A DNA stretch of 61,570 nt, filler included, from Candidatus Tectimicrobiota bacterium (GTDB taxonomy: Bacteria > JACPSX01), in assembly GCA_016193065.1 (NCBI GenBank). It is 6 parts of 6 records of this genome, joined end to end, with 100 filler letters (N's around TTAATTAATTAA, not from the genome) between each part and the next. Parts side by side here need not be neighbours in the genome. Positions count along the whole stretch, not along the records: positions 1 to 17,287 come from JACPSX010000269.1; 5 more parts are not named here. One strand, given 5' to 3'. The notes under the pieces were generated by a model that was not told the origin of the DNA, made no database searches, and worked only from the letters and a program-made list of their open reading frames with translations. Positions 3,959-56,015 of the stretch are shown piece after piece; the first letter of the stretch is position 1, and each line of letters starts with the position of its first letter. A program made the translations under genes and the position numbers.

Positions 3959-3993
3959 ATTCATCCTCCGTATGACGAATGCAACCACTCCAC

Positions 3994-4028
3994 CCCCTCT
4001 CCCTTGAGGGAGAGGGCAAGGGTGAGGG
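3994..4028. repeat. REP-like palindromic repeat
   Basis: Hairpin CCCTCTCCC-TTGA-GGGAGAGGG with GGGTGAGGG tail; related copies at 9321, 9832, 29497. Confidence 0.65.
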
Positions 4029-4032
4029 TGGT

Positions 4033-4578
4033 TCACGCCCTGTCAGGCCCTGCGGGCTGCAGATCTTCCTCGTCGCAATGGTCCACAGGTGCCCCTCCGG
4101 GAACCTCTCTCCCGGGCTCGCTGGAGGCGGTGGTCATCAGCTTCTCGCACTTCTCCCGCTGCTCCGGCGTCAGGAGGGCTTGCGCCTGCAGGATGCCCCG
4201 GATCCGCTGGATCTGCAGGTCCGCTCGCCTTCTCTCCGCTTGCCGAATTTTTGCCTCAATGGTGGCAAGGTCTGCGGAGCCACCTTCTACCAAAGCCATG
4301 ATCTCATCCTGCTGTTGAATCATCTCCTGCTGGGCCTGGCGGGCAGCTCCCTCGAAATCTGCGCGCAACTTCTCAAGCTCGCTTACCTGAGTTTCCGTAA
4401 GCCCCAGACGATCCTTGAACTGGATCATCCAGGTGATCGGCTGGCCCGAGAAAATGGCCCTATGAGAAATCCCACCCGATCCTTTGCTACCACCAGCCTC
4501 CTGGGAAAACCCGTAAGCCCCAACCCCCATGACTCCCAGCAACAGGACAGCCAGCAACCCAATCTTGATCCTCCCCAT
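4033..4578 (-). CDS. Periplasmic Spy/CpxP/ZraP-like protein
   Basis: Signal peptide, LGLTETQ and LTPEQR motifs, helical coiled-coil; AAGGAG RBS before ATG 4578. Confidence 0.8.
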
Positions 4579-4645
4579 GTCTTTTTCTCCTTCTTTCTTC
4601 ATGATTCCTCGCTAGCGGGCCCCGACCTGACTCGCTTGACAGGCC

Positions 4646-5693: not shown

Positions 5694-6152
5694 ATGGATG
5701 CGGATTGTTTGATTAAACTGACCAAAGCCGGGCTCAAGGAATCCATTGGCAAACATGTCGCGATCGTGATTCCGGAAATGGTCCAGAGAGAGGTTGTCGA
5801 GGCCGGTAAAGACAAAGGATACCCTGACGCTGCCCTGGTAGAGAGAAATATCGCTGCAGGGCTGATACAGATCACTGGGAAATCCTCCTCTCACCGCAGC
5901 GGGGATGACGCCCTTGTAACTGTTTTTCAAGGAGAAGAGTACGATGCTGTGGCAACTGATGACAGGAAACTGACCCGTATCCTGAAAGCAGCGAACGTCC
6001 CTTTCATCTTGCCCGGCTTGATTCTTTACTCTCTCAAACAACAGGGACTGATGAATCAAGAAACCGCTTTGAGAAGTCTGGATCAATTGGCTCCTTTCAT
6101 CAGCAATGATGAATACAGCACTGTGAGATTATTGCTGGAGGGAAGATCATGA
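5694..6152 (+). CDS. PIN-domain protein (putative toxin)
   Basis: N-terminal DAD, V..EVV, GD and ATDD acidic motifs typical of PIN folds. Confidence 0.7.
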   Translation: MDADCLIKLTKAGLKESIGKHVAIVIPEMVQREVVEAGKDKGYPDAALVERNIAAGLIQITGKSSSHRSGDDALVTVFQGEEYDAVATDDRKLTRILKAANVPFILPGLILYSLKQQGLMNQETALRSLDQLAPFISNDEYSTVRLLLEGRS

Positions 6153-6433
6153 ATGTAAAATCCCTAAGAATTCCCGAAGACATCGAAAAGGCCATTGAAT
6201 ACGTGGCGAAGGTTGAGAAGATCGAAAAAAGTCAATCCCTGCGAAAACTCACGCGCATCGGGTTCGAGTGCTACGTGGCGAAATCCTACGAGGCCGGAAA
6301 GCTGACTCTCTGGGAAGCAGGGAAACTTTTGAAACTGCCCCTTTCGGGAACTCTCGACCTCCTGGCGGAAATGGGGGTCAAGGGGAACATCCGGTCCAGC
6401 GAAGTCTTGGAAAGCCTGAGAACGATCCCGTGA
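6149..6433 (+). CDS. UPF0175-like putative antitoxin
   Basis: RHH-like N-terminus and YEAGKLTLWEAGKLL motif; ATGA overlap with PIN gene. Confidence 0.7.
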   Translation: MNVKSLRIPEDIEKAIEYVAKVEKIEKSQSLRKLTRIGFECYVAKSYEAGKLTLWEAGKLLKLPLSGTLDLLAEMGVKGNIRSSEVLESLRTIP

Positions 6434-6490: not shown

Positions 6491-6958
6491 CTAGTCAGTC
6501 TGCTCCGCGAGATAGTTCTGAAGCCCCATTTGCTTGATCTGGTCATGCTGGGCTTCGATCCAGTCGATATGATTCTCTTCGTCCTTGAGAATCGACTCGA
6601 ACAGATCCCTGGTACCGTTGTCACCCACCTCGACAGCCAAACGGATCGCCTCGTTGTACTCCCGGACCGCGGAATCCTCGCTGGCCCAATCGTTTGCGTG
6701 TTGCGCTTCCACCGCCGCGCCGATCTTCACCTCTTTCAGAACACCGACAACGGGAGAACCCTCGAGGAACAGGATGCGCTCAATCAGCCTCTCCGCGTGC
6801 TTCATCTCGTCGATCGCCCGCTTCTTGATTCCATTCTTCAGCCGCTCATACCCCCAGTTGTCGCACATCTCGGCGTGAACGATGTATTGATGAATCATGG
6901 TCAACTCCGAGGACAGGATATCGTTCAGCTTCGCTATGATCTTTTCGTTGCCCTTCAT
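6491..6958 (-). CDS. bfr: Bacterioferritin
   Basis: MKGNEKII start, ferroxidase DEMKHA and EENH motifs, GLQNYL C-terminus. Confidence 0.93.
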   Translation of the reverse strand: MKGNEKIIAKLNDILSSELTMIHQYIVHAEMCDNWGYERLKNGIKKRAIDEMKHAERLIERILFLEGSPVVGVLKEVKIGAAVEAQHANDWASEDSAVREYNEAIRLAVEVGDNGTRDLFESILKDEENHIDWIEAQHDQIKQMGLQNYLAEQTD

Positions 6959-6987
6959 GAGTTCATCTCCTCGAAAACAAGTTTCCT

Positions 6988-7086
6988 CTACGACACAACC
7001 GCCGCGTGGTCGAACGCAGTCCAGTTGACCGGCAGCACATCGAACCGGATGTCCTCCATCACCTCTTGCAGTAAAACGCACGCCAT
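6988..7086 (-). pseudogene. Stub resembling a type III restriction (Res) subunit N-terminus
   Basis: MACVLLQEVMEDIRFDVLPVNWTAFD then early stop; similarity recalled, not searched. Confidence 0.4.
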
Positions 7087-7090: not shown

Positions 7091-7348
7091 TCACTCAGCT
7101 TCCATCGTCAGTATGTCTTCGATTTTCTGAAGAAAACGTGGAAGCTCCTCTCTGGCGATCGTCCACACAATCTCATAATTGATGCCAAAGTAGTGATGAA
7201 TCATTTTGTCCCTCACGCCTGCCAGGTCTTTCCAAGGAATTTGGGAATACCTCTTCCTCAAACGGCTGGAGAGATTCTTCGCCGCCGCAATGCGCTGTAT
7301 CGCCTCCTGGATATCGCTGAGGAAGTCCTGATCTCTTCGCTTAGACAT
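7091..7348 (-). CDS. hepT: HepT/DUF86 HEPN RNase toxin with internal in-frame deletion
   Basis: IPW and RDKMIHHY (RX4HXY) present; only 85 aa, the DAVIRNLEIIGE-type segment is absent. Confidence 0.8.
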   Translation of the reverse strand: MSKRRDQDFLSDIQEAIQRIAAAKNLSSRLRKRYSQIPWKDLAGVRDKMIHHYFGINYEIVWTIAREELPRFLQKIEDILTMEAE

Positions 7349-7664
7349 ACCTCAACGTCCTTTGGATGTCGCCAGCAATGCGTTTGTATCGAGGGTTTTC
7401 CAGACTCCGATGCAGAGTATCAAAGGTCGCCAGGTCCACCTTTCTGCCTAATGTCTCTTCAAGATAGTAAGCCAATCCGACAAACTCCAGCCCAAGTGGT
7501 TTTACAAGCTGGACTAGGATGTCAACGTCGCTTTTCGTTGTGGGGGAGCCTTTCGCAAACGAGCCGTAGAGGGCTATTCTTTCCACGCCATACTTGTCCC
7601 GCAAATATGGCAGTTCTTTCCTCAAGATTTGCATGACTTGTTCTTTGGTCAGTGACTTTTTCAT
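7341..7664 (-). CDS. mntA: MntA-type minimal nucleotidyltransferase antitoxin
   Basis: GSFAKG...SDVD (GSX10DXD) and GRKVDL motifs; overlaps hepT start. Confidence 0.88.
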   Translation of the reverse strand: MKKSLTKEQVMQILRKELPYLRDKYGVERIALYGSFAKGSPTTKSDVDILVQLVKPLGLEFVGLAYYLEETLGRKVDLATFDTLHRSLENPRYKRIAGDIQRTLRYV

Positions 7665-8406: not shown

Positions 8407-9297
8407 CTACCTCAGCGGTTTGCCGCACTGGCCGCAGAAGCGGTCACCGGCGTCCAGTGGAGATCCGCAGCGGGTGCAGAAGCGGGCAGTCCGATCCGCT
8501 TTCTTGGCTTCTCCGGTCGCAGCCGTTGGGGTCCCTGGGGTCTGCGCACTCTGGCGCCTTCTGCGGCTCATAGTGGCAAATCCGCCAATGGCGATTACCG
8601 CAATTGTAGTCCCCACGGCCAGGTAAACATACGGGGATTTGCGTACTTCCTTCACCGGCACCTTTTCGCCGCCGACCTCTTTCTTGACGGAAGGTTTGCG
8701 GTCGCTCTTCGTGTAGGCGATCTTCAGGGACACATCCTTTCCGGGAGCGAGGTTCTCGAAGCCCAGGTGGGCGTAGTTGAACCCCTGCTGGTCCCCAAAA
8801 ACATTTGCCGGTTTGGGCTCCACCTGAAAATTCTCGGAGCGCAACGGTTGCTGCACATCCACGGCCAGCCTCTCCACGGGATAGGCAAGCTTCAGGAAGG
8901 GTACAATTTCCCGCCGCGTGTCACCCTTTACCCCGTCAAAGTAGTACTCCATCCGGAAGCGGGGCTCGGGCAGGTTGTATTTGACTTTCTTGACTCCCTT
9001 CTCTTCCGCAATCTCCCAGGTCTGGCAGAGATGTTCTTCTTTTTCCGTCATCGCGCAGGCTTCCGTCACCTCGGCCCCCGGAGGAAGGTAAAACACGACG
9101 GAGGAAGGCTTCCCCGTGTTTTGGGAAAAGACTCCCTCATACATCACCAGGACCCTGGGGTCGTCGTACTCGGGCCAGACGGAAATCTTGAGTTCTGAAA
9201 TCTTGTAAGCCGGAGATCCCTGCGCGTTGTCCCCCAGCAGGCCGATGAAGAGGAAAACACCCAGCAGGAACGCCGTCGCGGCAACTCTCTCCTTCAT
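8407..9297 (-). CDS. Exported/membrane protein with C-terminal double zinc ribbon
   Basis: Signal peptide, WPEYDDPRVLV domain, TM helix, CTRC...CGQC; AAAGGAG RBS before ATG 9297. Confidence 0.8.
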   Translation of the reverse strand: MKERVAATAFLLGVFLFIGLLGDNAQGSPAYKISELKISVWPEYDDPRVLVMYEGVFSQNTGKPSSVVFYLPPGAEVTEACAMTEKEEHLCQTWEIAEEKGVKKVKYNLPEPRFRMEYYFDGVKGDTRREIVPFLKLAYPVERLAVDVQQPLRSENFQVEPKPANVFGDQQGFNYAHLGFENLAPGKDVSLKIAYTKSDRKPSVKKEVGGEKVPVKEVRKSPYVYLAVGTTIAVIAIGGFATMSRRRRQSAQTPGTPTAATGEAKKADRTARFCTRCGSPLDAGDRFCGQCGKPLR

Positions 9298-9320
9298 GCT
9301 CTCATCTCCTTTGACAACGC

Positions 9321-9380
9321 CCCTCACCCTCCCCTCTCCCCGGGTACCCCGGGTGCCCTTTGGGCGTTGCGGCGAGGGGG
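9321..9380. repeat. REP-like palindrome with GGGTACCC/GGGTGCCC insert in loop
   Basis: CCCTCACCCTCCCCTCTCCCC-[GGGTACCCCGGGTGCCC...]-GGCGAGGGGG. Confidence 0.6.
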
Positions 9381-9803
9381 TCAAGATGTGACAATGGCAG
9401 CCAGCTCAGCGCCACAAATGCGGCAGAAATGATCCCCAGCCCCCCGCGGTGTCCCGCACTGGGCGCAGAATCGGGCTTCACCGCGGTGATTGTCGATGGC
9501 ATCCATCACCTGTTCGTCCACCAGGCCCCTCTTTTGGGTTGTCCGGTCGATTTGCTCCAGCAACGTGAGGGCCTTGAGACGATAGCGATCCTTGAGCTCT
9601 CCATAGTCTTTGGCGTCAATCTTCCCCATGCGGTGGTCAAGCTCCAGGTCCTTGAGAGCCGCGTAGACCACCTCCTTTTCAGACTCCAGGGCCTCCAATT
9701 CCTTCTTCCCTTGAGACCTCGGAGAAACCGCCGGGCGCACGAGAGGCCAGCCGACGAATGCCAGCGTCCCCAACACCAGGGTCACGATTAGTACCGTCTC
9801 CAT
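9381..9803 (-). CDS. CcmI-N-terminus-like membrane protein with zinc ribbon
   Basis: N-terminal TM, LKDLELDHRMGKIDAKDY motif, CAQC...CRIC. Confidence 0.75.
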   Translation of the reverse strand: METVLIVTLVLGTLAFVGWPLVRPAVSPRSQGKKELEALESEKEVVYAALKDLELDHRMGKIDAKDYGELKDRYRLKALTLLEQIDRTTQKRGLVDEQVMDAIDNHRGEARFCAQCGTPRGAGDHFCRICGAELAAIVTS

Positions 9804-9831
9804 TGTCCTCTCCTCAGAAATCTCTTGATCA

Positions 9832-9901
9832 CCCCCACCCTGACCCTCCCCGCACGCCCCGGGTACCCTCTGGGTGCCACCCGGGGTACCCGGGGGGAGG
9901 A
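9832..9901. repeat. REP-like palindrome with nested GGGTACCC inserts
   Basis: CCCCACCCTGACCCTCCCC-[..GGGTACCCTCTGGGTGCCACCCGGGGTACCC]-GGGGGGAGG. Confidence 0.6.
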
Positions 9902-9944
9902 ATCCGAGTTTTTCCCTCCTCCTGGGGAATGGGCAGGGGGCTTT

Positions 9945-10415
9945 TCAGTCAAAATCCTTAAGCTCGGCCTCCATGCGCCTCTGATAACGCTCCTCCAGAC
10001 GGGCGAGGTCTTCGCCGCCCAGAGCGTCAGAGGCCGCGGGCTGCCGGGAAGCCCAGCGCCGAACCACAGCGAAGATCGCTCCGCCAGCCACCAGAATCGC
10101 GGCAAATGGGGTGAGCCAGGCGGTCAGGTTGAACCCCTTCTTGGTGGGCGCTGCCAGCAGCTTCTCCCCGTAGTTGTCGATCATGTACGCGACGATCTTG
10201 GGCTTGTCCCAGCCCTGCTCAATCTTAGTGGCAATGACCTTGCGGAGCTGCTCACCGCACTCCATATCGCAGACCGGCAGGAGGTTGTTGCAGCCGCAGT
10301 TGCAGATGAAGTCCTTCCCCACATCCCGAACGGTCAAAGTCGCAGCCATGGCGGGAGAAGAGAGCAAAAGAGTCACCAGGAACCCGATCACGAACACCGG
10401 CTCAGACCAGCGCAT
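9945..10415 (-). CDS. ccmH: Cytochrome c biogenesis protein CcmH/NrfF-like
   Basis: Signal peptide, Cys cluster, YGEKLLAAP...GFNLTAWLTP motif, C-terminal TM; downstream of ccmF. Confidence 0.8.
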   Translation of the reverse strand: MRWSEPVFVIGFLVTLLLSSPAMAATLTVRDVGKDFICNCGCNNLLPVCDMECGEQLRKVIATKIEQGWDKPKIVAYMIDNYGEKLLAAPTKKGFNLTAWLTPFAAILVAGGAIFAVVRRWASRQPAASDALGGEDLARLEERYQRRMEAELKDFD

Positions 10416-12393
10416 TTTCGGGTACCTCCCTGGGAACGGCGGGAACCGACCGGAAGGTCTTACGGGGACGCTCGCTTCCCATGACCACCAGAATCCCAAA
10501 GCCCATGACGTAGGTGCCGATCCACATCCACATCATCAAGGGATTGACCAGAACCCGGAAAGATGCCCCTTGCGGGTCATAGCCCGCCAGGATCACGTAG
10601 AGATCTTCCTTCAGGTTGCTGCGGATGGCGACCATCCCGTGGGGTTGTTCGGAGCCCGGATGAAACTGCTTCTGGGGCAAAAGGGTCTGCAGGAACTTCC
10701 CTCCTTTGTAGACTGCCATCCGGGCCGCCACAATCATCGTGTCCCCCTTGGGGTACCCGACCAGGTTCTCGTACTTGAGGGTATAGGGGCCGATCTCCAG
10801 CGATTCCCCCTTCTTCACATAGCCCTCCTTCTCAACCTTGAAGGCTCCGCCGGCAACGGCCAAAACCAGGAGGAGAATCCCCAGGTGGATGATATAGCCG
10901 CCGTAGCGCCTCTTGTTGCGGGATACCAGATTGGAGAACGCCTTCACGAAGCTCTCCCCCGTCATGTGGGCCCGGGCCCGCGTCCCCCGGTAGAACTCGG
11001 TTCCGATAGTGATTCCAATGAAGAGGAGGAGCCCGAAAGTGACATTGACGAGAGGGTCTCGAACCCCCGAAACGGGAATGAGGAGAACAGCGCCCAGAAG
11101 AGCCGTCAGGAAGGGCAGGAGAAAGTTTCGCTTGAGGTTGGACCAGGAAGCCCGCCGCCAGGCAATCAGGGGGCATACCCCGGTGAGAAACAGCAGTGCG
11201 ATCCCGATGGGGATCATGACCTGGTTAAAGAAGGGGGGCCCCACAGTGACCTTCACGCCGCGAACGGCCTCGGCAATCAGCGGGTAGAAGGTCCCCCACA
11301 AGGTTGTAAACGCCACCCCCACGAGAAGGAGGTTGTTCACCAGGAAACTCGTCTCGCGGGACACGAGCCCGTCGAGCTCATTTTTGCTTCTGAGTTCCGG
11401 CAGGCGATAGAAGAGGAGCCCCAGGGAAACCAGAAGGACGACCGCCAGGAAGCCCAGGAACAAGGGGCCAAGGCCCGTCTGGGAGAAGGTGTGGACCGAG
11501 GACAGGATGCCGCTGCGGGTAAGAAACGTGCCCAGGATCGAGAGCCCGAAGGTGGCAATGATGAGGACCATGTTCCAGACCTTGAGCATATCTTTCTTTT
11601 CCTGGATCATCACCGAGTGCAGATAGGCTGTCCCCGTGAGCCAGGGCAGAAACGAGGCGTTTTCCACGGGGTCCCAGGCCCAATAGCCTCCCCAGCCCAG
11701 AACTTCATAGGCCCACCAGGCCCCGAACATGTTTCCCAGGGTCAAGAAGAACCAAGTGACCAGTGTCCAGCGCCGGGTGCTGCGGATCCACTCGTCCCCC
11801 AATCTCCCCGTGATCAATGCCGCCATGGCAAAGGCAAACGGAATTGTGAACCCCACGTAACCAATGTAGAGAGTCGGAGGGTGAAAGAACATGCCCGGGT
11901 TCTGCAGCAGAGGGTTGAGCCCATGGCCATCGGGAGGCGGCACGGGAACCGGTGTAAACGGGTTCGAAAAGAAATTGAGGACTGCTAGAAAGAAAATCGA
12001 GACGCCCATGTTGGTGGCCATCACGTAAGGCATGAGTTCCCTGTGCCGGTAGCGGTTTTGCAGGGTCACAACGGCTACAAAGATGGAGAGCATGAAGCTC
12101 CAGAACAGCAGTGAGCCGTCCTGCCCGCCGTATAGGGCCGATACCTTGTATGCGAGGCCCTGGCCCTTTCGAGAATAGTTCATCACATAGGCCAGGCTGA
12201 AGTCGTCCCGCAGGAAGGCCGCCAGCAGTGCCAGAGTGGAAACCCCGAGGAGGAAGGCAAGGGCCAGGGAGGCCTGCTCCGAGGAGCGCACCAATTCAGG
12301 CCGTTTTTTCAGATGCCCCAGCAGCGCCGCCGCCCCCGCATAGGCAGCCACAGCCAGTGACAGGAGAAGGGAAAATTCTCCAAGGGTGTTCAT
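10402..12393 (-). CDS. ccmF: Cytochrome c heme lyase CcmF/NrfE
   Basis: WWD motif WGGYWAWDPVEN, LNPLLQ, HPP, TRSG...SVHTF; GAAGGAG RBS before ATG 12393. Confidence 0.95.
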   Translation of the reverse strand: MNTLGEFSLLLSLAVAAYAGAAALLGHLKKRPELVRSSEQASLALAFLLGVSTLALLAAFLRDDFSLAYVMNYSRKGQGLAYKVSALYGGQDGSLLFWSFMLSIFVAVVTLQNRYRHRELMPYVMATNMGVSIFFLAVLNFFSNPFTPVPVPPPDGHGLNPLLQNPGMFFHPPTLYIGYVGFTIPFAFAMAALITGRLGDEWIRSTRRWTLVTWFFLTLGNMFGAWWAYEVLGWGGYWAWDPVENASFLPWLTGTAYLHSVMIQEKKDMLKVWNMVLIIATFGLSILGTFLTRSGILSSVHTFSQTGLGPLFLGFLAVVLLVSLGLLFYRLPELRSKNELDGLVSRETSFLVNNLLLVGVAFTTLWGTFYPLIAEAVRGVKVTVGPPFFNQVMIPIGIALLFLTGVCPLIAWRRASWSNLKRNFLLPFLTALLGAVLLIPVSGVRDPLVNVTFGLLLFIGITIGTEFYRGTRARAHMTGESFVKAFSNLVSRNKRRYGGYIIHLGILLLVLAVAGGAFKVEKEGYVKKGESLEIGPYTLKYENLVGYPKGDTMIVAARMAVYKGGKFLQTLLPQKQFHPGSEQPHGMVAIRSNLKEDLYVILAGYDPQGASFRVLVNPLMMWMWIGTYVMGFGILVVMGSERPRKTFRSVPAVPREVPENALV

Positions 12394-12411
12394 GAGGATC
12401 TCCTTCAAGCC

Positions 12412-12804
12412 TCAATTGCCATAGGGGTTGCGATAGCTCGGCACGCTGACCCGGAAGTGAGCAGCAGCGGGAAGCTGTTGCACTGAAGTGTGAAAGGGAA
12501 CACTCCCGCGAGGCGGAATCCCCTCGATCTGGGCTTTGCTTTCCCCGACCTTCTCGTGGGAGCTGCTGAAGAACTCCACTTGAACCTCCACATGCTCCAC
12601 CGGGTTTCTCAGGCGATTGGTGACAATCCCCGACACCCAGACTTTCCCACCTTCCTTGGAAAACCGGGTTTCGTTGACGCCGATCTCAGCGGACCGGGTA
12701 GAAGACCAGGCCAGATAGACGACGAAGACGACGGGAAGCAGAATCCAGAGAACTTTCTTGAATCTGCGATCTCCCCTCTCCTTGCCGCTGTTTTCCGTTT
12801 CCAT
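12412..12804 (-). CDS. Membrane-anchored FxLYD-like beta-sandwich protein
   Basis: Single TM, then V.G.VTN...V.VQVEFF...I.P.GSVPF pattern. Confidence 0.6.
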   Translation of the reverse strand: METENSGKERGDRRFKKVLWILLPVVFVVYLAWSSTRSAEIGVNETRFSKEGGKVWVSGIVTNRLRNPVEHVEVQVEFFSSSHEKVGESKAQIEGIPPRGSVPFHTSVQQLPAAAHFRVSVPSYRNPYGN

Positions 12805-12839
12805 GCCCTGCCCCTAAATCAAGGTCCTCACCGCTTTCT

Positions 12840-12855
12840 AGCAAACAAGATGCCA
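12840..12855 (-). promoter_or_regulatory. Sigma-54 promoter of the ccmF operon
   Basis: Minus strand TGGCAT-CTTGT-TTGCT. Confidence 0.85.
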
Positions 12856-12947
12856 TGGAAAAATTTCGGAACAGCACCGTAATCACTGATGAAAGAAGGA
12901 ACTTGCTATTCGCCCGCGACGGCAGTGGAGCCGAAAGCGACGGCTCT

Positions 12948-13001
12948 TGACAATCTGGCAAAAACAGCGCAAAGACCCGCCGCCGTCTCGACATTTTGGC
13001 A
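12948..13001. promoter_or_regulatory. Paired candidate enhancer (bEBP) sites
   Basis: TGACAATCTGGCA (12948) and CGACATTTTGGCA (12989), 41 bp apart. Confidence 0.65.
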
Positions 13002-13129
13002 AGCCAAGATTACGTCCTCGCTGTTGGAGATCCGAAGTACCGGCGCCTGATCGGCTTTGATCCGTCTCTAAGTAGAAGTTTTCTAACGTCCCTTACGAGC
13101 TTCCGGGCCCGGGCGACCGGGAGGGAGAA

Positions 13130-13145
13130 CGGCAGGAAACTTGCA
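13130..13145 (+). promoter_or_regulatory. Divergent sigma-54 promoter of the selenoprotein operon
   Basis: CGGCAG-GAAAC-TTGCA (GG-N10-GC). Confidence 0.65.
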
Positions 13146-13188
13146 TACCCGCAACCGGTGTCAGAGCTGTTTGTAATGTACCGATCCA

Positions 13189-13749
13189 ATGGGAGGACCT
13201 ACTGTGTCAGTGAAAAGCTCCAGAAGGAGATACCGCATCAATTACTGGCTGTTTTTCCCTGTTCTTGGCGCTCTGCTCCTCGCGGCCATTCCCCCGCAGG
13301 CGGAAGCCGGGCCGAAGCAACTTCCCCTTCCCACAACTCTTGGCGAGATGCGCCTGGACCACTCCCTCCAGGGACAGGAGGCCCTCAAGGATATCTTCCG
13401 CCTGCACGGCAAGACCTTTGATCTCAAGGACGGTTACGTAGGCCACTACAGCAACAAGGCTGCCAAGGCCATGGTCTGGGTGTCAGAGTCCAAGAACCAG
13501 GACCAGTCCCGGCAGCTCTTGCAAATGATGGCGGCGGAAATCCGCCGCGGGCGCGGCCCTTACAGCAATTTTCAGGAGTTTGACGTCAACGGCAAAGTCG
13601 TCTACTCCGTGGATGGCCAGGGGCAGCAACACTACTTCTACGGCTCGGGCAAGCGGAACGTCTGGCTCGCCGTGGACCCCCCAGCAGCACAGAAGGCCCT
13701 CCACGAACTTTTGATGAAAATCAAACCCTTCGAAGTAACCAAGCCATGA
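13189..13749 (+). CDS. Exported hypothetical protein
   Basis: Signal peptide ending AEA, soluble domain; ATGA-coupled to next gene; true start may be GTG 13210. Confidence 0.75.
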   Translation: MGGPTVSVKSSRRRYRINYWLFFPVLGALLLAAIPPQAEAGPKQLPLPTTLGEMRLDHSLQGQEALKDIFRLHGKTFDLKDGYVGHYSNKAAKAMVWVSESKNQDQSRQLLQMMAAEIRRGRGPYSNFQEFDVNGKVVYSVDGQGQQHYFYGSGKRNVWLAVDPPAAQKALHELLMKIKPFEVTKP

Positions 13750-14324
13750 AGCGCCGCAGCATCTTCTGGATTGTTGTTCCGCTGGTTCTTTTGTTTCTTG
13801 GTCTGCTGGGACGCAGCACGCTGATCAAGGCCAAACAGCAACAGCGCACAGCAGAAGGCTACCAGGTCTTCGCCAAGATCCTCAAGGACAGGCGTGAGGC
13901 CCCCGAGCTTTCCCTGAAGCTCCTGGGGGGAGGGCCGGCCGACCTGCGCGAGTTCCGCGGCCGGGTCGTGATGCTCAACTTCCGGACCACCTGGTGACAC
14001 AGTTGTAAACAGGAGGGTCCTTCTGTAGAAAAACTCTTTCAGGAGCACAAAGGGCACCCCGATTTTGCCCTCCTTGCCGTCGATGTGGGGGAAGCCGAGG
14101 AGATTGTGGACCGCCGCTCCCGGGAGCTGGGATGGACCTTTCCCGTGCTCCTGGACAGCCGGGGCGAAATTTCGTCCCGATACGGGATCACTGGGCACCC
14201 GGAGACCTTCCTCATCGATAAGCAAGGACGCATCGCGGCCATGGCCATTGGACCCCGCAACTGGCAGAGCCCGGAGGCCGAGCGTCTCATTACTGCTCTT
14301 GTGAAGGAGGATCAGCCCTTCTGA
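13746..14324 (+). CDS. Membrane-anchored TlpA/ResA-like thiol-disulfide oxidoreductase, selenoprotein (Sec at TGA 13995-13997)
   Basis: ORFs 13746-13997 and 14085-14324 share a frame; read-through gives VMLNFRTTW-U-HSC-KQEGP...FPVLLD...GHPETFLID. Confidence 0.88.
14009..14026 (+). promoter_or_regulatory. Bacterial SECIS-like hairpin
   Basis: ACAGGAG-GGTC-CTTCTGT, 7-bp stem starting 11 nt after the UGA with a G-first loop. Confidence 0.75.
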
Positions 14325-14509
14325 ACCGACTGGACAGCTCCCGGTCGGCCGCGATTTGCGGAACACCCGGGCTGCCGCCATATCTACCGGACGGCAAGCC
14401 CACGGCTTCCGCGGCAGATTGTCCGCTTGCTCAAAAATCTTTTGACCTTGCCCGCCTTGGGATATAATAAGAAAAATCATCCAAAACCCAGGAATTCCGG
14501 GGACAGTTC

Positions 14510-15379
14510 ATGGAGAAGCAAGACAAGGCACTGGTCGTGCCGGGGGAAGCTGAATCCTTTGATCGAGAAGACGCGCCGGTCCGTCCCAGCCGGAAGGCTG
14601 CCAGCAGAAGGAAGGCGGCGTGGGACAACAGCCTCAGGATCGGCTCTATCGTGGCGATCTTCTTTATCTGGTGGATCCTGAGCCTGATCTTCCCCCCTAC
14701 CCTGATCCCCAAGCCATGGGAAACTCTCGCGGAGGCAGGGGCCATCATCAGCACGGGGAACTTCTTTGTGGAGATAGGGAACACGTTGCGCCGGGTTCTG
14801 GTCGGCTTCGGCCTGGCCATGGCCGTCAGCATCCCCCTCGGGATCCTCATGGGAACTCTGCGTCGCATGGAGAGCTTCTTCGAGCCGCCGGTCATTCTGG
14901 GGCTCACCATGCCGGGACTCATCTGGGCCGTGCTCATGATCATGTTCTTCGGCCTGACGGAGACCAGCGCCTACGCCGCCGTGGCCATAACGATCTTTCC
15001 CATGCTGACCATCAGCATCTGGCAGGGGACAAAGTCCATTGACAAGGATCTCATCGACATGAGCAATGTCTTCCAGGCCACTCCCGTGATGAAAATCGTT
15101 GAGGTGATCCTGCCTCAGCTCATTTCCCATATCCTGGCGGCCATCCGCTACGGTCTGGGACTGGCCTGGAAAGTGGTCGTAGTGGTGGAAATGTTCGGCT
15201 TCAGCAACGGAGTGGGCTATCAGGTGGTCCGAGGCTTCAACGTCTTCTCCATGAAGACCGTGCTGGCCTGGGCCCTCACCTTCCTGATCGTCATGATCCT
15301 GATCGAGTTCGGCCTCATCGGGTGGTTCGAGCGAAGTGTGACGCGCTGGCGCCCCCGGGTCGAGGCGTGGAGGCGTTGA
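14510..15379 (+). CDS. NitT/TauT-family ABC transporter permease
   Basis: TLRRVLVGFGLA...GILMG, LAWKVVVVVEMFG motifs. Confidence 0.9.
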   Translation: MEKQDKALVVPGEAESFDREDAPVRPSRKAASRRKAAWDNSLRIGSIVAIFFIWWILSLIFPPTLIPKPWETLAEAGAIISTGNFFVEIGNTLRRVLVGFGLAMAVSIPLGILMGTLRRMESFFEPPVILGLTMPGLIWAVLMIMFFGLTETSAYAAVAITIFPMLTISIWQGTKSIDKDLIDMSNVFQATPVMKIVEVILPQLISHILAAIRYGLGLAWKVVVVVEMFGFSNGVGYQVVRGFNVFSMKTVLAWALTFLIVMILIEFGLIGWFERSVTRWRPRVEAWRR

Positions 15380-15382
15380 TCC

Positions 15383-16156
15383 ATGGCCTATATCCATGTG
15401 GATCGGGCGGTCAAGTTCTTCCCCCGGGAAGACGGCACGGAGATGCTGGTTCTGGATGGGGTTTCCTTCGATTCGAAGGCCTACGGCATTACCTGCCTGC
15501 TGGGCCCATCGGGCTGCGGCAAGTCCACCCTTTTGAACGTGATCTCGGGGCTCGAGCGTCTGGACCGGGGCCGGGTGGAGATCATCTCGAACCACCGGGA
15601 TACGGGGGCCAGACCTCCGAAGCTGGGGTACGTGTTCCAGGACCCCCGCTTGCTCAGTTGGAAGCGGGTGGAAGACAACCTGATCTTCGCCCTGAAAGGG
15701 ATGAAGGTGCCTCCCTCCGAATGGCAGGAGCGGGTTCACAAATACCTGGACCTGGTGGGCCTGCTCGAGTTCCGCAAGCAATATCCCCTCTATCTGTCCG
15801 GGGGGATGCGCCAGAGAATCGGACTCGCGCGCGGCCTAGTGGTGCAGCCGGAAGTTCTCCTTATGGACGAGCCCTACAGCAAGCTGGATCAGTTGACGGC
15901 CCGTAAGTTGCGGGAGGACACCCTGTCCATCTGCGCCCTCCTGAAGCAGACCACCCTTTTAGTGACCCACGACGTGGAGGAGGCCGCCTACATGGGAGAC
16001 CGGATCGTGGTCATGTCCGCCCGGCCCGCGCGCGTCGTGGACATATTCGATAACCCCTTTTCGGCTCTGGAGAGAAACCTGGACGACGTGCACTTTATCG
16101 AGTTCAAGAAAAAGGTGCTCCAGACGGTCCTCAATCTCGTCAAAGAGGAGGTTTGA
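15383..16156 (+). CDS. NitT/TauT-family ABC transporter ATPase
   Basis: GPSGCGKS, LSGGM, LLMDEP, THD motifs. Confidence 0.92.
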   Translation: MAYIHVDRAVKFFPREDGTEMLVLDGVSFDSKAYGITCLLGPSGCGKSTLLNVISGLERLDRGRVEIISNHRDTGARPPKLGYVFQDPRLLSWKRVEDNLIFALKGMKVPPSEWQERVHKYLDLVGLLEFRKQYPLYLSGGMRQRIGLARGLVVQPEVLLMDEPYSKLDQLTARKLREDTLSICALLKQTTLLVTHDVEEAAYMGDRIVVMSARPARVVDIFDNPFSALERNLDDVHFIEFKKKVLQTVLNLVKEEV

Positions 16157-17160
16157 TGATGAGAAGGCATTCCAGCAAGATCCTGATCATCGCCGCTGTG
16201 GTCCTGGTGTCCCTGTGGGGAATATCCGCTCCATATCCGAAAGTTGAGGCGGCCGAGCTCCCCTCCGTTGAAGTGGGCCTTCCCCAGGACGGGCTTTTCG
16301 GCCTGGGAGGCCAGTACATTCTGGACAAAGGCCTGGACCGCAAGAACGGGTTCATCATGAAACCGCGCTGGGCCGGCGTCCCGGAGATCCAGCGGCTTTT
16401 GGGCATACAGGCCATTTCCGTGGGATTGATGACGCCCGAGGCGGGGCTGCGGGCCAATCTACAGGGCACCCTGATCCGCTTGGTCCAGCCCTATCAGACC
16501 GCCCATATGTACGTCCTGGTCCGGAAGGATTCCCCCTACCAGAAGGTGGCAGACCTGAAGGGAAAATCCATCGCCTTGACTCCGGAAATCACCGGTCTCT
16601 ACAACATGTTTGACTTCATGATGAAGAAGAGGGGCATCAACATCGAAAAGGATTTTCAGTTGAAGAAGCTCGGAGCGCCGGCCATCATCGCCGTGCTGGA
16701 AAGAGGAGAGGTGGAAGCGGGCATCATCTGGGAATCCCATGTCTCCCGGCTCCTCATGACGGGAAGATACAGGACGATCATGGGATTTCGGGATGAGCTG
16801 AACTCCCTCCTGAACACGAAAGTCTTCCCCGTGATCTGGCTGTCCGGCCTCGAACCCTGGGTCAAGGCAAACCCCGCTCTGGTCTCCAAACTGCGGGCCG
16901 CCTGGACGGAGGCCTACCGGGGTGTCCAGCAGGATGAGGCCCATTTCCGGAAGTACGCGAAACAGTTCTTTGGATTGGACAAGCCCGAGGAACTCACTCT
17001 GGCCTGGCAGCGCACCCGGGAGTTCTTGCTCCCGGCAGATTTCACCTGGCCCGATGCCTCCAGCCTGAGGGCCGCCAAGAACTATCTCCGGGAGGCTACG
17101 GAGATGGGGATGTTTTCCAAGGAGGCGGCCGGCTATATCGACAGCTTTTACGCCCCTTGA
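16153..17160 (+). CDS. NMT1/THI5-like ABC substrate-binding protein
   Basis: Signal peptide, DLKGKSIA motif, operon position. Confidence 0.85.
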   Translation: MMMRRHSSKILIIAAVVLVSLWGISAPYPKVEAAELPSVEVGLPQDGLFGLGGQYILDKGLDRKNGFIMKPRWAGVPEIQRLLGIQAISVGLMTPEAGLRANLQGTLIRLVQPYQTAHMYVLVRKDSPYQKVADLKGKSIALTPEITGLYNMFDFMMKKRGINIEKDFQLKKLGAPAIIAVLERGEVEAGIIWESHVSRLLMTGRYRTIMGFRDELNSLLNTKVFPVIWLSGLEPWVKANPALVSKLRAAWTEAYRGVQQDEAHFRKYAKQFFGLDKPEELTLAWQRTREFLLPADFTWPDASSLRAAKNYLREATEMGMFSKEAAGYIDSFYAP

Positions 17161-17228
17161 TCGAGCGAAGCCTGCCTCTGGCTAGTGGAATGTCACCGAA
17201 GCTCGCTGTGTAGTAGCGTTCCGACCCC

Positions 17229-20499: not shown

Positions 20500-21956
20500 A
20501 GGGCTTCGGAAGCTCCCCAAGAAAAATTTCTCCTTTTCTCCTGGCGGCCCTTCTGGGACTTCTCCTGAGCAGTTGCGCGGCCCCGCGGCTGGACTTCCCA
20601 GCGGTTTCGGACCTGCGCTACAAGCCCATCCAATGGACTCCCCTGGAGCCCGAACGGCGGGTCCTGAAAAACGGCCTGGTCCTCTACCTGCTCGAGGATC
20701 ACGAGCTCCCCCTGATCAACATTTCGGCCACGATCCGGGTGGGATCCGTGTATGAGCCCGCAGATAAAGTCGGCCTGGCCTCTCTGACAGGCTCCACCAT
20801 GCGCGCAGGGGGAACCGCGTCCTTCTCCCCGGAAGAGATGAACCAGACTTTGGAGTTCCTGGGGGCCTCGGTGGAGAGTTCCATCGGCACGGAATCAGGC
20901 CAGGTCTCCATGGGAGTTCTCCGCAAGGACCTTGACCTGGGGCTCCGGATCTTCGCGGACGTCCTGCGCCGTCCGGTTTTCGGCCAGCAGTGGGTTGATC
21001 TGGCCAAGAACCAGGCCATCGAAGGGATCCGCCGCCGCAACGACAACCCGGGCGGAATCGCCCAGAGGGAGTTTGCCCGGCTCATTTATGGAGATCACCC
21101 CAACGGGCGCCTGTCCACTGTGCAAACGATTCAGAATATCACCCGCCAGGACATGATCGACCTTCAGCGACGCTACTACCACCCAAACCAGGTGATCCTG
21201 GGGATCACGGGAGATTTTCAAACCGAGGAGATGGTCGCCAGGATTTCTGAAACCTTCTCCAACTGGGAACCGGACTCGGTGGTCTATCCCCCGGTTCCAC
21301 CGGTTCCCCGGGAGATCTCCCCTTCCGTGAACTTCATAAACAAAGAAGGAGGTCAGGCCACCGTGGTGCTGGGGCACCTGGGCATTCGTTTGAACAACCC
21401 CGACCTCTACGCTCTGCGGGTCATGAACCACATCCTCGGAGGCGGCGGGTTTAACTCCCGGTTGATGCGGGAGATCCGTTCTGACCGGGGGCTGGCCTAT
21501 TCGGTCGGGAGCTCGCTGGGAGCCGGGGTGCGGGATCTGGGGACCTTTCGCGTCTCGGGAGGAACAAAACCCCAGACGGCCGCCGAGATGATCTCTCTCA
21601 TGATCAAGAACCTGCGGGGGATCCAAAAAGACGTCACTCGGGAGGAGGTGGAAGCAGCCAAAGAATCCATCGTCAACTCCTTCCTGTTTACCTATACGTC
21701 CAAGTCGGCCGTCGTGGACCAGCAAATCTTCCTGGAGTTTCATGATTTGCCCCGGGACTACCTCCGGACCTATCCCGAAAAGATTTCCCGCGTCACTCGC
21801 GAAGACGTCCTGCGCGTGGCCGGGCAATATCTGCACCCCGATCGCCTGATCCTCCTCGTGGTGGGGGATGACAAGAAATTCGACCGCTCCCTGAGCGACT
21901 TTGGAGCCGTTCGCACGATCCGTCTCGACGAACCCCTCCCGGCAACGGCCCCCTGA
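20496..21956 (+). CDS. M16-family peptidase partner subunit, probable lipoprotein
   Basis: No HXXEH; SRL..EIR..RGLAYSV motif; lipobox LSSC; ATGA overlap. Confidence 0.88.
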   Translation: MKGFGSSPRKISPFLLAALLGLLLSSCAAPRLDFPAVSDLRYKPIQWTPLEPERRVLKNGLVLYLLEDHELPLINISATIRVGSVYEPADKVGLASLTGSTMRAGGTASFSPEEMNQTLEFLGASVESSIGTESGQVSMGVLRKDLDLGLRIFADVLRRPVFGQQWVDLAKNQAIEGIRRRNDNPGGIAQREFARLIYGDHPNGRLSTVQTIQNITRQDMIDLQRRYYHPNQVILGITGDFQTEEMVARISETFSNWEPDSVVYPPVPPVPREISPSVNFINKEGGQATVVLGHLGIRLNNPDLYALRVMNHILGGGGFNSRLMREIRSDRGLAYSVGSSLGAGVRDLGTFRVSGGTKPQTAAEMISLMIKNLRGIQKDVTREEVEAAKESIVNSFLFTYTSKSAVVDQQIFLEFHDLPRDYLRTYPEKISRVTREDVLRVAGQYLHPDRLILLVVGDDKKFDRSLSDFGAVRTIRLDEPLPATAP

Positions 21957-21978
21957 AAGGCCAAGGAATCGGTCTCCT

Positions 21979-24469
21979 ATGAGCGCTCCCCGGCTGTACC
22001 TCATTGACGGCCAATCCTACATTTACCGCGCCTACTTCGCCATCCGCCAGTACCTGTCCACAGCAGCGGGACTGCCGACCAATGCAATCCTCGGCTTCAC
22101 GAACATGCTTCTGAAGGTCCTGAGGGAGGAAAAGCCCGATCTGCTGGCCGTTGTCTTCGATCCGAAAGGTCCCACACGCCGGCAGGAAGTCTTTGAATCC
22201 TACAAAGCCCAGCGCCCCTCCATGCCCCCCGACATGGCCCGGCAGATCCCCTACATCCACCGCGTGGTGGATGCCTTGCGGATTCCAAGGTTACAGATCG
22301 AGGGGCAGGAAGCAGACGATGTGCTGGGAACCCTGGGGGTTCGGGGTGTGCACGAGGGATATCAGGTAACTCTGGTCACCGGGGACAAGGACATGCTCCA
22401 GATCGTGGGGCCCAACGCGGTGGTCCTGGACACGATGAAAGGGAAGGTCTACACGGAGAAAGAGGTCATCGAGCGCTTCGGAGTGGAGCCCGGCCGCGTG
22501 GTCGAGGTCATGGGTCTCATGGGGGATTCCATCGACAACATCCCCGGAGTGCCGGGGATCGGCGAGAAGACCGCGATAAAGCTGATCCGGGAATTCGGTA
22601 CCCTGGAGAACTTGCTGGCGAACCCGGACCGGGTGAAAGGGGAAAAACTGCGTGAGAGCCTGAAAGAGTATGCGGAGCAGGCCCGCTTGAGCCGCACGCT
22701 GTGCACCGTGGAGACCGACCTGCCCGTCGATCTCCCTCTGGAGTCCCTGCGGGTCCAGCCTCCGGACCGCCCTGCTCTTCTGAGCCTGCTCCGGGAACTG
22801 GAGTTCTCCAACCTGCTCAAGGAATTCGCCGCGGAGCCGGCTCCCGCCCCAGTTTCTTTACCGGCAGAGGAGGAGCGGATCTCCTGGCCTTCTTTCCGGG
22901 AAACACTGAAAAGCCCGGCCGGATTCGCTTTCGAGATTGTCAATGGGACGAGTGCCACGCCGCAATTTGCCGTGGCCGTCTCGGGAGATTCCTCCCATAT
23001 GTTGGGTGAGGATCTCACCTCGGACCCGGCGGTTCTCAAAGATTTCAGAGCTCTCCTGGAAGACCCGGATCTCGCGAAGATCTGTCACGATGCGAAGGGA
23101 AAGTACCGGACTCTGGCCCGGCACGGGATCCACCTGCGCGGGGTCTGCTTCGATCCCATGATTGCCGCCTATCTCCTGAACCCGGCCAAGAACCGCTACG
23201 ATCTCCCTCAACTGGCTGTGGAATCCCTGGGAGTTTCCCTGGCAGAGGAAGGGAAGGGAGGAGTCAGCGCCGTAGAGGCCCGGCGGCGGGCTGCGGCCGT
23301 ATTCAAGCTGCGGGAGGTCCTGTCGGAACCTTTGCGGGAGAGCGGGCTCAATGAGCTTTTCTACGAGGTGGATCTCCCCCTGGCCCGGGTGCTGGCCCGC
23401 ATGGAGGAGTGCGGGGTCAAGGTGGACATGGACCACCTGCGTGAGCTTTCCAAAAGGATCGAGATCGATCTGGAACAGATCGTTTCCCGGATTTATGCCC
23501 TGGCCGGCACGGAATTTAACATCAATTCTCCGGTTCAGCTTCGGGAGATCCTCTTCGAGCGCCTGGGGCTCAAGCCGGTCAAGAGAACCAAGACGGGGTA
23601 CTCGACGGACATGGAGGTTCTGGAGAAGCTGGCGGAGCATCACGAGCTGCCCGCGGAAATCCTCTCCTACCGCCAGCTCGCCAAGCTCAAGTCGACCTAC
23701 ATCGATGCCCTCCCCACCATGGTGGATCCCCGGACAGGCCGCATTCACACCTCCTATAATCAGACCGTGGCAGCCACGGGGCGCCTGAGCAGCAGCGATC
23801 CGAACTTGCAAAACATCCCGATCCGCACGGAGCTGGGCCGGGAGATTCGCAAGGCGTTTGCAGCGGAAAAGGGCTTCCTCCTCCTGTCCGCGGATTATTC
23901 CCAGATCGAGCTTCGAATCCTGGCTCACGTTTCGGGGGACGAGGCCATGCTGGAGGCCTTCCACCAGGGCGAGGACATTCACGCCCGCACGGCGGCCGAG
24001 GTCTTCGGAGTGGACCCTTCCGGAGTCACCCCCGACATGCGGCGGGTGGCCAAAACCGTGAACTTCGGTATCCTTTACGGTCTGAGCGTCTACGGGCTGG
24101 CCAGCGGCTTGAACCTGTCCCGGGAAGAAGCCCGGGCCTTCATTGAACGCTACTTTGAGCGCTATCCCGGGGTCAAAGCCTACATTGAAAAAGTAAAGGG
24201 CGATGCCGCCCGGCGGGGATATGTGACCACACTGATGAACCGGCGCCGCTACCTCCCTGAGATGGAGAGCCGCGACCGCAACGTGCGCGAGCTGGGGGAG
24301 CGGTTGGCCATCAACAGCCCAATCCAGGGGAGCGCCGCGGACATCATCAAGGAAGCCATGATCCGCATCGAGCGAGAGCTGGAAGAGCAGCAGCTCTGCG
24401 CCGCCATGATCCTCCAGGTCCACGACGAGGGACATACATACAGGAAGAAATTGGAACGAAGCTCACTAG
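21979..24469 (+). CDS. polA: DNA polymerase I with frameshifting deletion after motif C as assembled
   Basis: LIDG, EADD, GDKD, ATGRLSS.DPNLQNIP, ADYSQIELR, LQVHDE; terminal DIHTGRNWNEAH* lies in the +1 frame at 24431-24469. Confidence 0.92.
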
Positions 24470-24476
24470 GCTCCTC

Positions 24477-24540
24477 CGTCATTCCGGCGAAGGCCGGAAT
24501 CCAGGGGAACCACTGGACCCCGGCTTCCGCCGGGGAGGCG
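24477..24540. repeat. CGTC-type REP pair
   Basis: CGTCATTCCGGCGAAGGCCGGAATCCAG...CTGGACCCCGGCTTCCGCCGGGG. Confidence 0.75.
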
Positions 24541-24571
24541 CAGGACACAATAGGAGGGACGGGAGGCAGCT

Positions 24572-25465
24572 ATGAAGTCGGTGGGGTTTATGGGACTGGG
24601 GCTCATGGGGAAACCCATGGCCCAAAACATCCTGAAGGCGGGCTACCCGCTCACCGTCTACAACCGCACCCGGGACAAGACCCGCGAGCTGGAACAAGCG
24701 GGAGCCAAGGTTGCGGCCACTCCCCGCGACGCGGCGCGCGGCGCGGACGTGATCATCACGATGGTCTCCGATCCACCGGCCGTGCGGGAAGTAGTCCTCG
24801 GTCCGGAAGGAGTTGTCCAAGGTGCTCGCCGCGGGGCACTGCTGATCGACATGAGCACTATCTCCCCCGCGGACACCTGCTCTCTGGCCGCCGAGATCGA
24901 GAAGTCCGGGATCGCTCTTCTCGATGCTCCCGTCTCCGGAAGCGTGCAGGGAGCCAGCGATGGAACTCTGGCGATTATGGTCGGCGGCGAGCGTGCTCTC
25001 TTCACAGAGTCGGAGCCCCTGCTCCGCACCATGGGGGACAAGATCTTCTATACCGGGCCGCAGGGGAGCGGCTCGGCCATGAAGATGGTGGTCAATCTGG
25101 TCGGAGCGGCGGCGTTGATCGCTCTCGGCGAGTGCCTCGTCCTGGGCGCCAAGTCGGGACTCGACCCCAAGCAGATCATTCAGGTTCTGGAAGCCAGCGC
25201 CATGCGCTCGGCCCTGATCTCACTCAAGGGGCCCAGGATGTTGCGCCGCGACTTCTCGCCTCAATTCCCCCTGAAGCTCATGCACAAGGACCTGGGGTTG
25301 ATCCTCGCCACCGCGGCCCGGGAAGGAATTTCTCTGCCCGTCACGGCCTTGATCAAGGAGTTTTATCAGGTGGCGTGCAGCCGCAACCAGGGCGACCTGG
25401 ACTATTCGGCCATCCTCACGATCCTGGAGCAACTCAACGGGGTCACCGTAGCGGGACATGATTGA
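24572..25465 (+). CDS. NAD(P)-dependent beta-hydroxyacid dehydrogenase (GarR/MmsB family)
   Basis: GLGLMG, YNRT, DAPVSG, catalytic K, KDL motifs. Confidence 0.92.
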   Translation: MKSVGFMGLGLMGKPMAQNILKAGYPLTVYNRTRDKTRELEQAGAKVAATPRDAARGADVIITMVSDPPAVREVVLGPEGVVQGARRGALLIDMSTISPADTCSLAAEIEKSGIALLDAPVSGSVQGASDGTLAIMVGGERALFTESEPLLRTMGDKIFYTGPQGSGSAMKMVVNLVGAAALIALGECLVLGAKSGLDPKQIIQVLEASAMRSALISLKGPRMLRRDFSPQFPLKLMHKDLGLILATAAREGISLPVTALIKEFYQVACSRNQGDLDYSAILTILEQLNGVTVAGHD

Positions 25466-37515: not shown

Positions 37516-37526
37516 GCTCCTTCTAG

Positions 37527-38177: not shown

Positions 38178-38196
38178 CGTGCTTGCCTGCCCTCCG

Positions 38197-55992: not shown

Positions 55993-56015
55993 GCCTTCGA
56001 AGGCAGGCGGGCAAC

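Follow-up and report, generated by a model that had tools for sequence, protein, structure and literature searches.

Does the in-frame TGA codon at positions 13995-13997 of a DNA stretch from Candidatus Tectimicrobiota bacterium (assembly GCA_016193065.1) end a short gene, or is it read as selenocysteine (Sec) within a longer thioredoxin-fold protein? The whole stretch that was analysed, 61,570 nucleotides (nt) including filler, is referred to below as the window. An initial reading of the sequence (the original prediction) had proposed a hidden TlpA/ResA-type selenoprotein with a U-H-S-C active site, split by the open reading frame (ORF) annotation. Read directly, the codons at 13980-14015 are TTC CGG ACC ACC TGG TGA CAC AGT TGT AAA CAG GAG. 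Translation from the ATG start with TGA taken as U yields a single product of 192 residues (...NFRTTW-U84-H-S-C87-KQE...). Both the placement of the TGA at the first Cys of the WCxxC motif and the frame open to 192 residues, as originally described, agree with the coordinates and the translation. The split of the annotation is equally real. Under translation table 11 the same frame yields two ORFs, 13746-13997 (83 residues) and 14085-14324 (79 residues), the first table 11 start 3' of the TGA lying at 14085, 30 codons on. Public records of the gene are fragments of 72-110 residues, of which one bears the name 'TlpA family protein disulfide reductase'. The elements of the reading frame are the following:

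13746..14324, + strand: putative selenoprotein gene, 192 codons including Sec84 (translation with TGA as U; TGA terminator at 14322-14324)
13995..13997, + strand: in-frame TGA, predicted Sec84, at the first Cys position of W-C-x-x-C (alignment of loci; alignment A1)
14004..14006, + strand: Cys87 (TGT), the resolving cysteine of U-H-S-C (translation; invariant column in alignment A1)

To place the codon in an evolutionary context, the best frame of each of 160 homologous loci (80 from genomes and 80 from metagenomes) was aligned to the protein. The column of U84 holds TGC or TGT in 157 of the 160 loci and TGA in the remaining three (L001, L105 and L106). This alternation of Cys and TGA at one column agrees with the homologue comparison proposed in the original prediction. 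The three TGA loci have an identical TTW-U-HSCKQE segment and are ~86% identical to the query; in L001 the orthologue is 86% identical over its full length, with the TGA at the same codon. Three N-terminal database fragments (P0124, P0125 and P0127; 83, 83 and 78% identity, respectively) all terminate at ...FRTTW, so that in several lineages gene callers are halted at this very codon. Two C-terminal fragments (P0126 and P0128) show 81-85% identity.

The codons past the TGA are under purifying selection. Compared with the L001 gene, 84 of 576 nucleotides differ (85.4% nucleotide identity), and the ratio of nonsynonymous to synonymous substitution rates (dN/dS) is 0.109 upstream of the TGA and 0.147 downstream of it. 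Third codon positions take 26 of the 41 downstream changes. The 30 codons between the TGA and 14085 lack a start of their own, and six of their seven changes are synonymous, which indicates that they are translated by reading through the TGA. Furthermore, Logan contigs from the runs of three studies (X4 record 11, X5 record 18 and X6 record 21) span the codon; the runs containing the locus are groundwater metagenomes. No difference at 13995-13997 is found among the rows listed for these bridging contigs. TGC or TGT in reads had been named at the outset as an observation that would overturn the proposal; what is seen is TGA in L001, L105 and L106, and contigs of three studies with no listed difference.

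Considering the Cys/TGA pairing, the conserved stop and the domain matches described below, we uphold the proposed hidden TlpA/ResA-type selenoprotein with a U-H-S-C site. Judged from sequence comparison, 13746-14324 is very probably a real, mis-annotated selenoprotein gene. The locus is thus a clear example of a selenoprotein split or shortened by standard annotation. A scan of the GC-rich window for other in-frame TGA codons in UxxC or CxxU contexts returned 117 mechanical candidates, of which only the one at 13995 is convincing.

Two more distant database proteins show a similar truncation. P0002 ('TlpA family protein disulfide reductase [Nitrospinota bacterium]', 110 residues, 58% identity) covers the C-terminal part only and starts five codons past the CxxC position, and P0129 (92 residues, 59% identity) is also a fragment of the C-terminal part alone. 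Going by their sequences, both may represent further unrecognised Sec genes.

The candidate SECIS hairpin and the selenocysteine machinery

Bacterial decoding of UGA as Sec involves a selenocysteine insertion sequence (SECIS) in the mRNA, and a candidate follows the TGA directly:

14009..14026, + strand: SECIS-like upper stem-loop ACAGGAG-GGUC-CUUCUGU, 7 bp (one G-U pair) with a GGUC loop, -6.7 kcal/mol
14001..14035, + strand: larger SECIS candidate that adds a lower stem of 4 bp, AGUU/AACU (14001-14004 with 14032-14035), from the minimum free energy (MFE) structure
13992..14041, + strand: longest run of the gene without a difference from L001, 50 nt, covering TGG-TGA and the hairpin (the next longest runs are 26, 25 and 22 nt)

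The hairpin starts 11 nt and its loop 18 nt past the UGA; counted from the U of UGA, the G and U of the GGUC loop are nucleotides 23 and 24. With the lower stem included, the 41 nt from the UGA (13995-14035) have an MFE of -8.8 kcal/mol. Rules for bacterial SECIS elements given in PMC13188914, in the legend of its Figure 2, ask for 3-9 nt in the loop, 4-16 bp in the upper stem, a UGA-loop distance of 16-37 nt, a G among the two leading loop nucleotides (as a rule G[G/U]) and an MFE of at most -7.5 kcal/mol. The element satisfies these constraints as quoted there (GGUC, 7 bp, 18 nt, -8.8 kcal/mol over 41 nt).

The spacing proposed originally, a stem-loop 11 nt past the UGA as in Escherichia coli fdhF, is also in agreement with the part of PMC8659212 that describes fdhF, where the upper stem-loop lies 11 nt from the UGA and G23 and U24 are in the loop. 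The present hairpin is like the fdhF element in its 11-nt offset and in the loop G and U at 23 and 24. Unlike the fdhF element, it lacks the bulged U17, position 17 being a paired A, and its lower stem is only 4 bp long; SelB binding is a prediction.

The closest relative for which a genome was available, G001, is the source of L001. It aligns collinearly with 8551-17185 of the window (81-87% nucleotide identity), and it codes for a complete set of Sec genes: selA (591 bits, cut-off 268), selB (373 bits, cut-off 242), selD (380 bits, with one in-frame TGA) and tRNA-Sec (69.2 bits, gathering score 47; anticodon tca according to ARAGORN). The selD gene of G001 (L090) and that of G002 (L091), a metagenome-assembled genome (MAG) of Nitrospinota, both have a TGA at the position of the active-site Cys (...CAG-U-AGK... 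and ...AGG-U-GAK..., respectively). Behind each of these TGAs stands an 8-bp hairpin whose loop, GGG or GGA, lies 17 nt downstream; the window hairpin has the same geometry. The Sec machinery of G001 is indirect but strong support for reading the window TGA as Sec. As for G002, selB, selD and tRNA-Sec were found and selA gave no match; none of its four TlpA-like genes has an in-frame TGA.

Several observations weigh against Sec decoding or fail to add to it. None of selA, selB and selD is among the 61 window ORFs that were scanned, and the window contains no tRNA gene. All Sec-type sequences are close relatives, with identity of at least 78%. The hairpin is identical in L001, L105 and L106, and because the stem is invariant in all four DNA sequences there are no compensatory changes to examine. 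Nor is the hairpin exceptional: 153 of the 1847 TGA triplets in the window (8.3%) precede a hairpin of equal or greater stability that meets the rules on loop and spacing, and shuffling gave z-scores of -0.45 (61 nt), -1.05 (41 nt) and -1.72 (bare hairpin). A G[G/U] loop accompanies 72 of the 1847 triplets (3.9%), and a GGUC loop none. By itself, the hairpin is weak evidence for Sec. It gains weight because the UGA and the hairpin are exactly what the longest run shared unchanged with L001 covers.

Two other genes of the window have family matches related to selenium. The 414-residue FGE-sulfatase/DinB_2 protein at 30027-31271 (- strand) scores 418.9 bits against SenA (selenoneine synthase; cut-off 420) and 289 bits against EgtB (cut-off 360). 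No senB- or senC-like neighbour is present among the ORFs scanned. This SenA-like gene may point once more to selenium metabolism in the organism. At 34626-35828 (- strand) lies a 400-residue fusion of glutaredoxin (Grx, residues 1-83) and thioredoxin reductase (TRX_reduct, 387.5 bits, residues 95-395). Against the 'Uxx-star glutaredoxin-like (seleno)protein' model its Grx part scores 68.7 bits, above the cut-off of 66; it has no in-frame TGA.

The product, its neighbourhood and its possible role

The read-through product matches AhpC-TSA (PF00578, 72.8 bits), Redoxin (63.4 bits) and Thioredoxin_8 (PF13905, 41.1 bits) above the Pfam cut-offs, and PF13098 slightly below (25.6 bits, cut-off 27). 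The AlphaFold model, obtained with a 41-sequence alignment, has a mean predicted local distance difference test (pLDDT) score of 90.3. It begins with a long helix (residues 6-37), which is followed by a beta-hairpin (44-59) and then by the thioredoxin core; strands 44-51 and 56-59 precede the core, and U84 stands directly before helix 85-101. In a Foldseek search (E <= 1e-11) the best structure match was 3kcm, a thioredoxin-family protein of Geobacter metallireducens, with a template modeling (TM) score, normalised by target, of 0.92, compared with ~0.9 for ResA, 0.77 for TlpA and 0.75-0.81 for CcmG. A sequence search of PDB gave the same order (3kcm, E 5e-25; ResA, 3e-18; E. coli DsbE/CcmG, 3e-6 to 6e-6). 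Further features of the protein are these:

13761..13811, + strand: N-terminal hydrophobic segment, residues 6-22, IFWIVVPLVLLFLGLLG, after basic K-R-R (translation; model helix 6-37)
14013..14015, + strand: Glu90, three residues past Cys87 (invariant column, 41 sequences)
14199..14201, + strand: Pro152 in G-H-P-E-T-F, the conserved thioredoxin-fold proline (invariant column)

Members of the TlpA-like family (cd02966) are recognised by W-C-x-x-C, by a conserved Pro and by an acidic residue at the third position past the second Cys. In alignment A1 (41 sequences), C84 (Sec in the query), C87, E90 and P152 are invariant, and W83 is nearly so. The product thus shows the traits of the fold: the N-terminal beta-hairpin, W-C-x-x-C with Sec, E90 and P152. 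Glu90 is presumably the counterpart of the conserved acidic residue of ResA (Glu80) and CcmG, and Pro152 would be in the cis form by analogy with the family. The modelled fold is TlpA/ResA/CcmG-like. The N-terminal segment likely represents a signal anchor that would place the domain outside the cytoplasm.

The genes around the selenoprotein gene are arranged as follows:

9945..10499, - strand: CcmH-family gene downstream of ccmF (Pfam CcmH, 72.2 bits; 83% identical in L001)
10402..12408, - strand, divergent: CcmF/NrfE-family heme lyase subunit (CcmF_C, 192.8 bits; Cytochrom_C_asm, 143.1 bits)
12412..12804, - strand: membrane protein with an FxLYD domain, encoded between ccmF and the divergent operon (NF038353, 32.3 bits, cut-off 23; syntenic in L001 and L105)
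13189..13749, + strand: upstream co-oriented gene of 186 residues, no Cys, hydrophobic N-terminus (ORF call)

The TGA stop of the 186-residue gene overlaps the ATG of the selenoprotein gene (ATGA), which suggests that the two form one operon; a copy 82% identical occupies the same place in L001 and L105. Pfam and NCBIfam returned nothing over their cut-offs for the 186-residue protein, and its Atlas clusters are unnamed. Structural leads to DUF6599 and PknH_C were weak and were not used. The CcmF-family protein is 92% identical in L001 and scores 450 bits against TIGR00353, below the cut-off of 569. A promoter and terminator scan of 12300-14800 gave nothing beyond the expectation from shuffled sequence. 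Downstream of the selenoprotein gene follows a NitT/TauT-type ABC transporter. Its genes (14510-17160, + strand) stand directly 3' of the selenoprotein gene, are syntenic in L001 and L106, and constitute one of three such sets in the window, the others being at 36700-39153 (- strand) and 55252-58325 (+ strand). The best or near-best NCBIfam matches of these sets include SaoP, SaoA and SaoX, far below the cut-offs.

The explanation that we prefer, and that we regard as probable when taken as a whole, combines Sec decoding with an anchored reductase and a conjecture about its substrate. The UGA at 13995 would be read as selenocysteine during translation, the mRNA hairpin with its GGUC loop 18 nt past the UGA bringing SelB with Sec-tRNA(Sec) to the ribosome; the second TGA (14322), without such context, would terminate. 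The product would be a membrane-anchored, outward-facing TlpA/ResA/CcmG-like domain with the active site W-U84-H-S-C87. As in the chemistry of the family, Sec84 would attack a substrate disulfide as the nucleophile, Cys87 would resolve the mixed selenenylsulfide, and a membrane protein of the CcdA/DsbD type would re-reduce the U-C pair; G001 has one DsbD_TM gene that codes for a possible reductant. The target would be the thiol pathway of apocytochrome and CcmH that belongs to the second CcmF/CcmH pair next to the gene.

It is this last step that meets the best surviving rival, in which the selenoprotein is real and has no link to cytochrome c maturation (ccm). To such a general extracytoplasmic reductant we give only slightly less than an even chance. 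Its variants include a TlpA-like role, for instance in the reduction of Sco or copper-centre proteins, defence against methionine sulfoxide or peroxide, and partnership with the 186-residue protein. A number of findings count against the ccm link and thus in favour of this rival. The best NCBIfam matches of the product, namely ResA, TlpA, StoA and DsbE, are all below the curated cut-offs (ResA, NF002854, 90.9 versus 170 bits; TlpA, NF047696, 72 versus 230; dsbE, TIGR00385, 52.8 versus 123.15). The sequence is closer to 3kcm and ResA than to CcmG, and among the G001 paralogues it is 39-42% identical to two ResA/TlpA-like proteins and 33% identical to the DsbE-like protein of the ccm cluster. 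That cluster, on G001 contig C357 (L188, L194, L196 and L197), has the canonical order ccmC-ccmE-ccmF, a Cys DsbE-like gene (best NCBIfam match dsbE, 105.6 bits) and ccmH/TPR. Since a Cys-type DsbE-like gene is already part of this cluster, the Sec protein is one paralogue more. The selenoprotein gene is divergent from ccmF/ccmH and lies outside the ccmF operon, with two genes between; its translational coupling is to the secreted 186-residue protein, not to ccm genes. Finally, the flanks of the eight closest Cys-type genome loci (L002-L009) gave no CcmF match.

Other findings speak against a general reductant. The arrangement of ccmF/ccmH and the selenoprotein gene is kept in L001 and L105, a weak argument as these are close relatives. 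A CcmF homologue lies within the fetched flanks of 116 of the 160 loci, mostly directly upstream and on the same strand; these loci represent the canonical ccmF-ccmG arrangement and are 26-37% identical to the query. The G-x-P-E-T-F-L-I-D motif and Glu90 of the query are common to these CcmG-type homologues beside ccmF. Moreover, family scans revealed no copper-chaperone or Sco gene beside the locus. Of the two CcmF genes in G001, one belongs to the canonical cluster; the second forms a pair with ccmH next to the Sec gene. NrfA was considered as a client of the second lyase; the G001 match is marginal and partial (26.4 bits, profile positions 235-371 of 438) and was not used.

The 'Sec version of the CcmG/ResA role' in the original prediction is therefore not retained in that form, given the divergent orientation relative to ccmF/ccmH, the Cys DsbE-like gene of G001, and scores below the DsbE, ResA and TlpA cut-offs. 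We tentatively suggest, at somewhat less than even chances, that the substrate would be the apocytochrome/CcmH thiols of the second pair, the protein acting as an accessory Sec reductase alongside a Cys-type CcmG. The narrower proposal, that in this uncultured groundwater lineage related to Nitrospinota/Tectomicrobia the Sec protein would be the dedicated thiol reductant of the second CcmF/CcmH module, separate from housekeeping ccm, is rather unlikely. If true, some of the c-type cytochromes would depend on selenium for one step of their maturation. The adjacency of the second ccmF/ccmH pair in any case provides a testable hypothesis on selenium in cytochrome c maturation.

Elsewhere in the window, metal-handling genes are abundant, all on the - strand (1394-4036, 32001-34445, 4033-4602 and 6491-7081). 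They code for two copper-type P1B ATPases with CopZ-like N-terminal domains, a heavy-metal-resistance LTXXQ protein and a bacterioferritin. A HepT-like RNase and nucleotidyltransferase (MNT) pair at 7091-7348 and 7341-7664 (both - strand) resembles a toxin-antitoxin module, and 5694-6433 (+ strand) holds a PIN_9/UPF0175-like pair. The DNA polymerase I ORF at 21901-25461 (+ strand) is 1186 residues long. The PolI model matches it as far as residue 843 (profile position 844 of 889); ~340 residues follow in the same frame, overlapped by a 297-residue ORF in another frame (24572-25465). The extension could be a fusion, a frameshift or an open frame due to high GC content.

Other explanations for the in-frame TGA

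The remaining rivals deny Sec decoding itself. Selenium-independent read-through of UGA, through near-cognate insertion of Trp or Cys or through a local recoding of another kind, or else a code in which TGA is generally sense, is improbable. It draws on the fact that the evidence for Sec machinery comes from the relative G001 and that the hairpin energy is unexceptional. However, TGA terminates 20 of the 38 family-matched ORFs in the window, this gene included, which argues against a general reassignment of the code. In addition, the codon occupies the position of the redox-active Cys, a classic Sec/Cys pair, and G001 possesses selA, selB, selC and selD, its selD being a Sec gene itself with a hairpin of the same geometry.

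Even less probable is a pseudogene, in which a nonsense mutation has hit the catalytic Cys codon and both halves of the ORF are decaying. Table 11 does split the gene, and a single base change converts TGC or TGT to TGA. Yet the same TGA is found in lineages that differ at 14.6% of nucleotides, the downstream dN/dS of 0.147 includes the startless 30 codons, and the three further N-terminal fragments (78-83% identity) stop at the same residue. A sequencing or assembly error at 13997, which has nothing in its favour beyond the single base that separates TGA from TGC or TGT, is close to negligible, as TGA occurs in three assemblies of other collections (L001, L105 and L106) and the contigs of three studies that span the site have no difference listed there. 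Together, the kept TGA, the purifying selection downstream of it and the bridging contigs exclude, in our view, both a sequencing error and a decaying pseudogene.

Comparison with known systems

The lineage that carries the gene is poorly known. RpoA of the window is 94-97% identical to metagenome proteins and 67-70% identical to proteins of Nitrospinota/Nitrospinae or Tectomicrobia MAGs. According to the portion of PMC13326102 that deals with BSepDB, MAGs labelled Nitrospinota, with 48-54 selenoprotein genes, are within the ten organisms richest in such genes. The correct reading of the locus adds a putative extracytoplasmic Sec reductase to this groundwater lineage; what is known of Sec decoding and of the TlpA-like fold family is left unchanged by it.

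Regarding the characterised reductases, the protein is like ResA of Bacillus subtilis, TlpA of Bradyrhizobium and CcmG/DsbE of System I in its fold, W-C-x-x-C-x-x-E, Pro and likely N-terminal anchor; ccmF and ccmH are its divergent neighbours. Unlike all three, it has Sec in place of the nucleophilic Cys, falls below the three NCBIfam cut-offs and is an extra paralogue in G001. In the literature tying selenocysteine to CcmG or TlpA, supplementary tables aside, no title names a Sec reductase of cytochrome c maturation.

Known selenoproteins offer closer parallels. The NCBIfam ResA-like WAxxUGC selenoprotein (NF041054) belongs to the same superfamily, cd02966, as stated in the relevant section of PMC13188914. 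Membership in that family was rejected, as the product scores 34.8 bits versus a cut-off of 300 against a profile of 354 positions and has U-H-S-C versus U-G-C. The tables of PMC1794560, PMC9312934 and PMC13188914 list predicted bacterial UxxC selenoproteins of the PF00578/PF13905/cd02966 type. The present protein is like those described there as 'thiol-disulfide isomerase-like' or 'Prx-like thiol:disulfide oxidoreductase', with Sec at the first Cys and the same domain models. Compared by description, it is unlike these published accounts in having H-S between U and C and in its second ccmF/ccmH neighbour, which the descriptions in those tables do not mention. UxxC TlpA-like selenoproteins are thus already catalogued, and the gene is a further member, of the U-H-S-C type.

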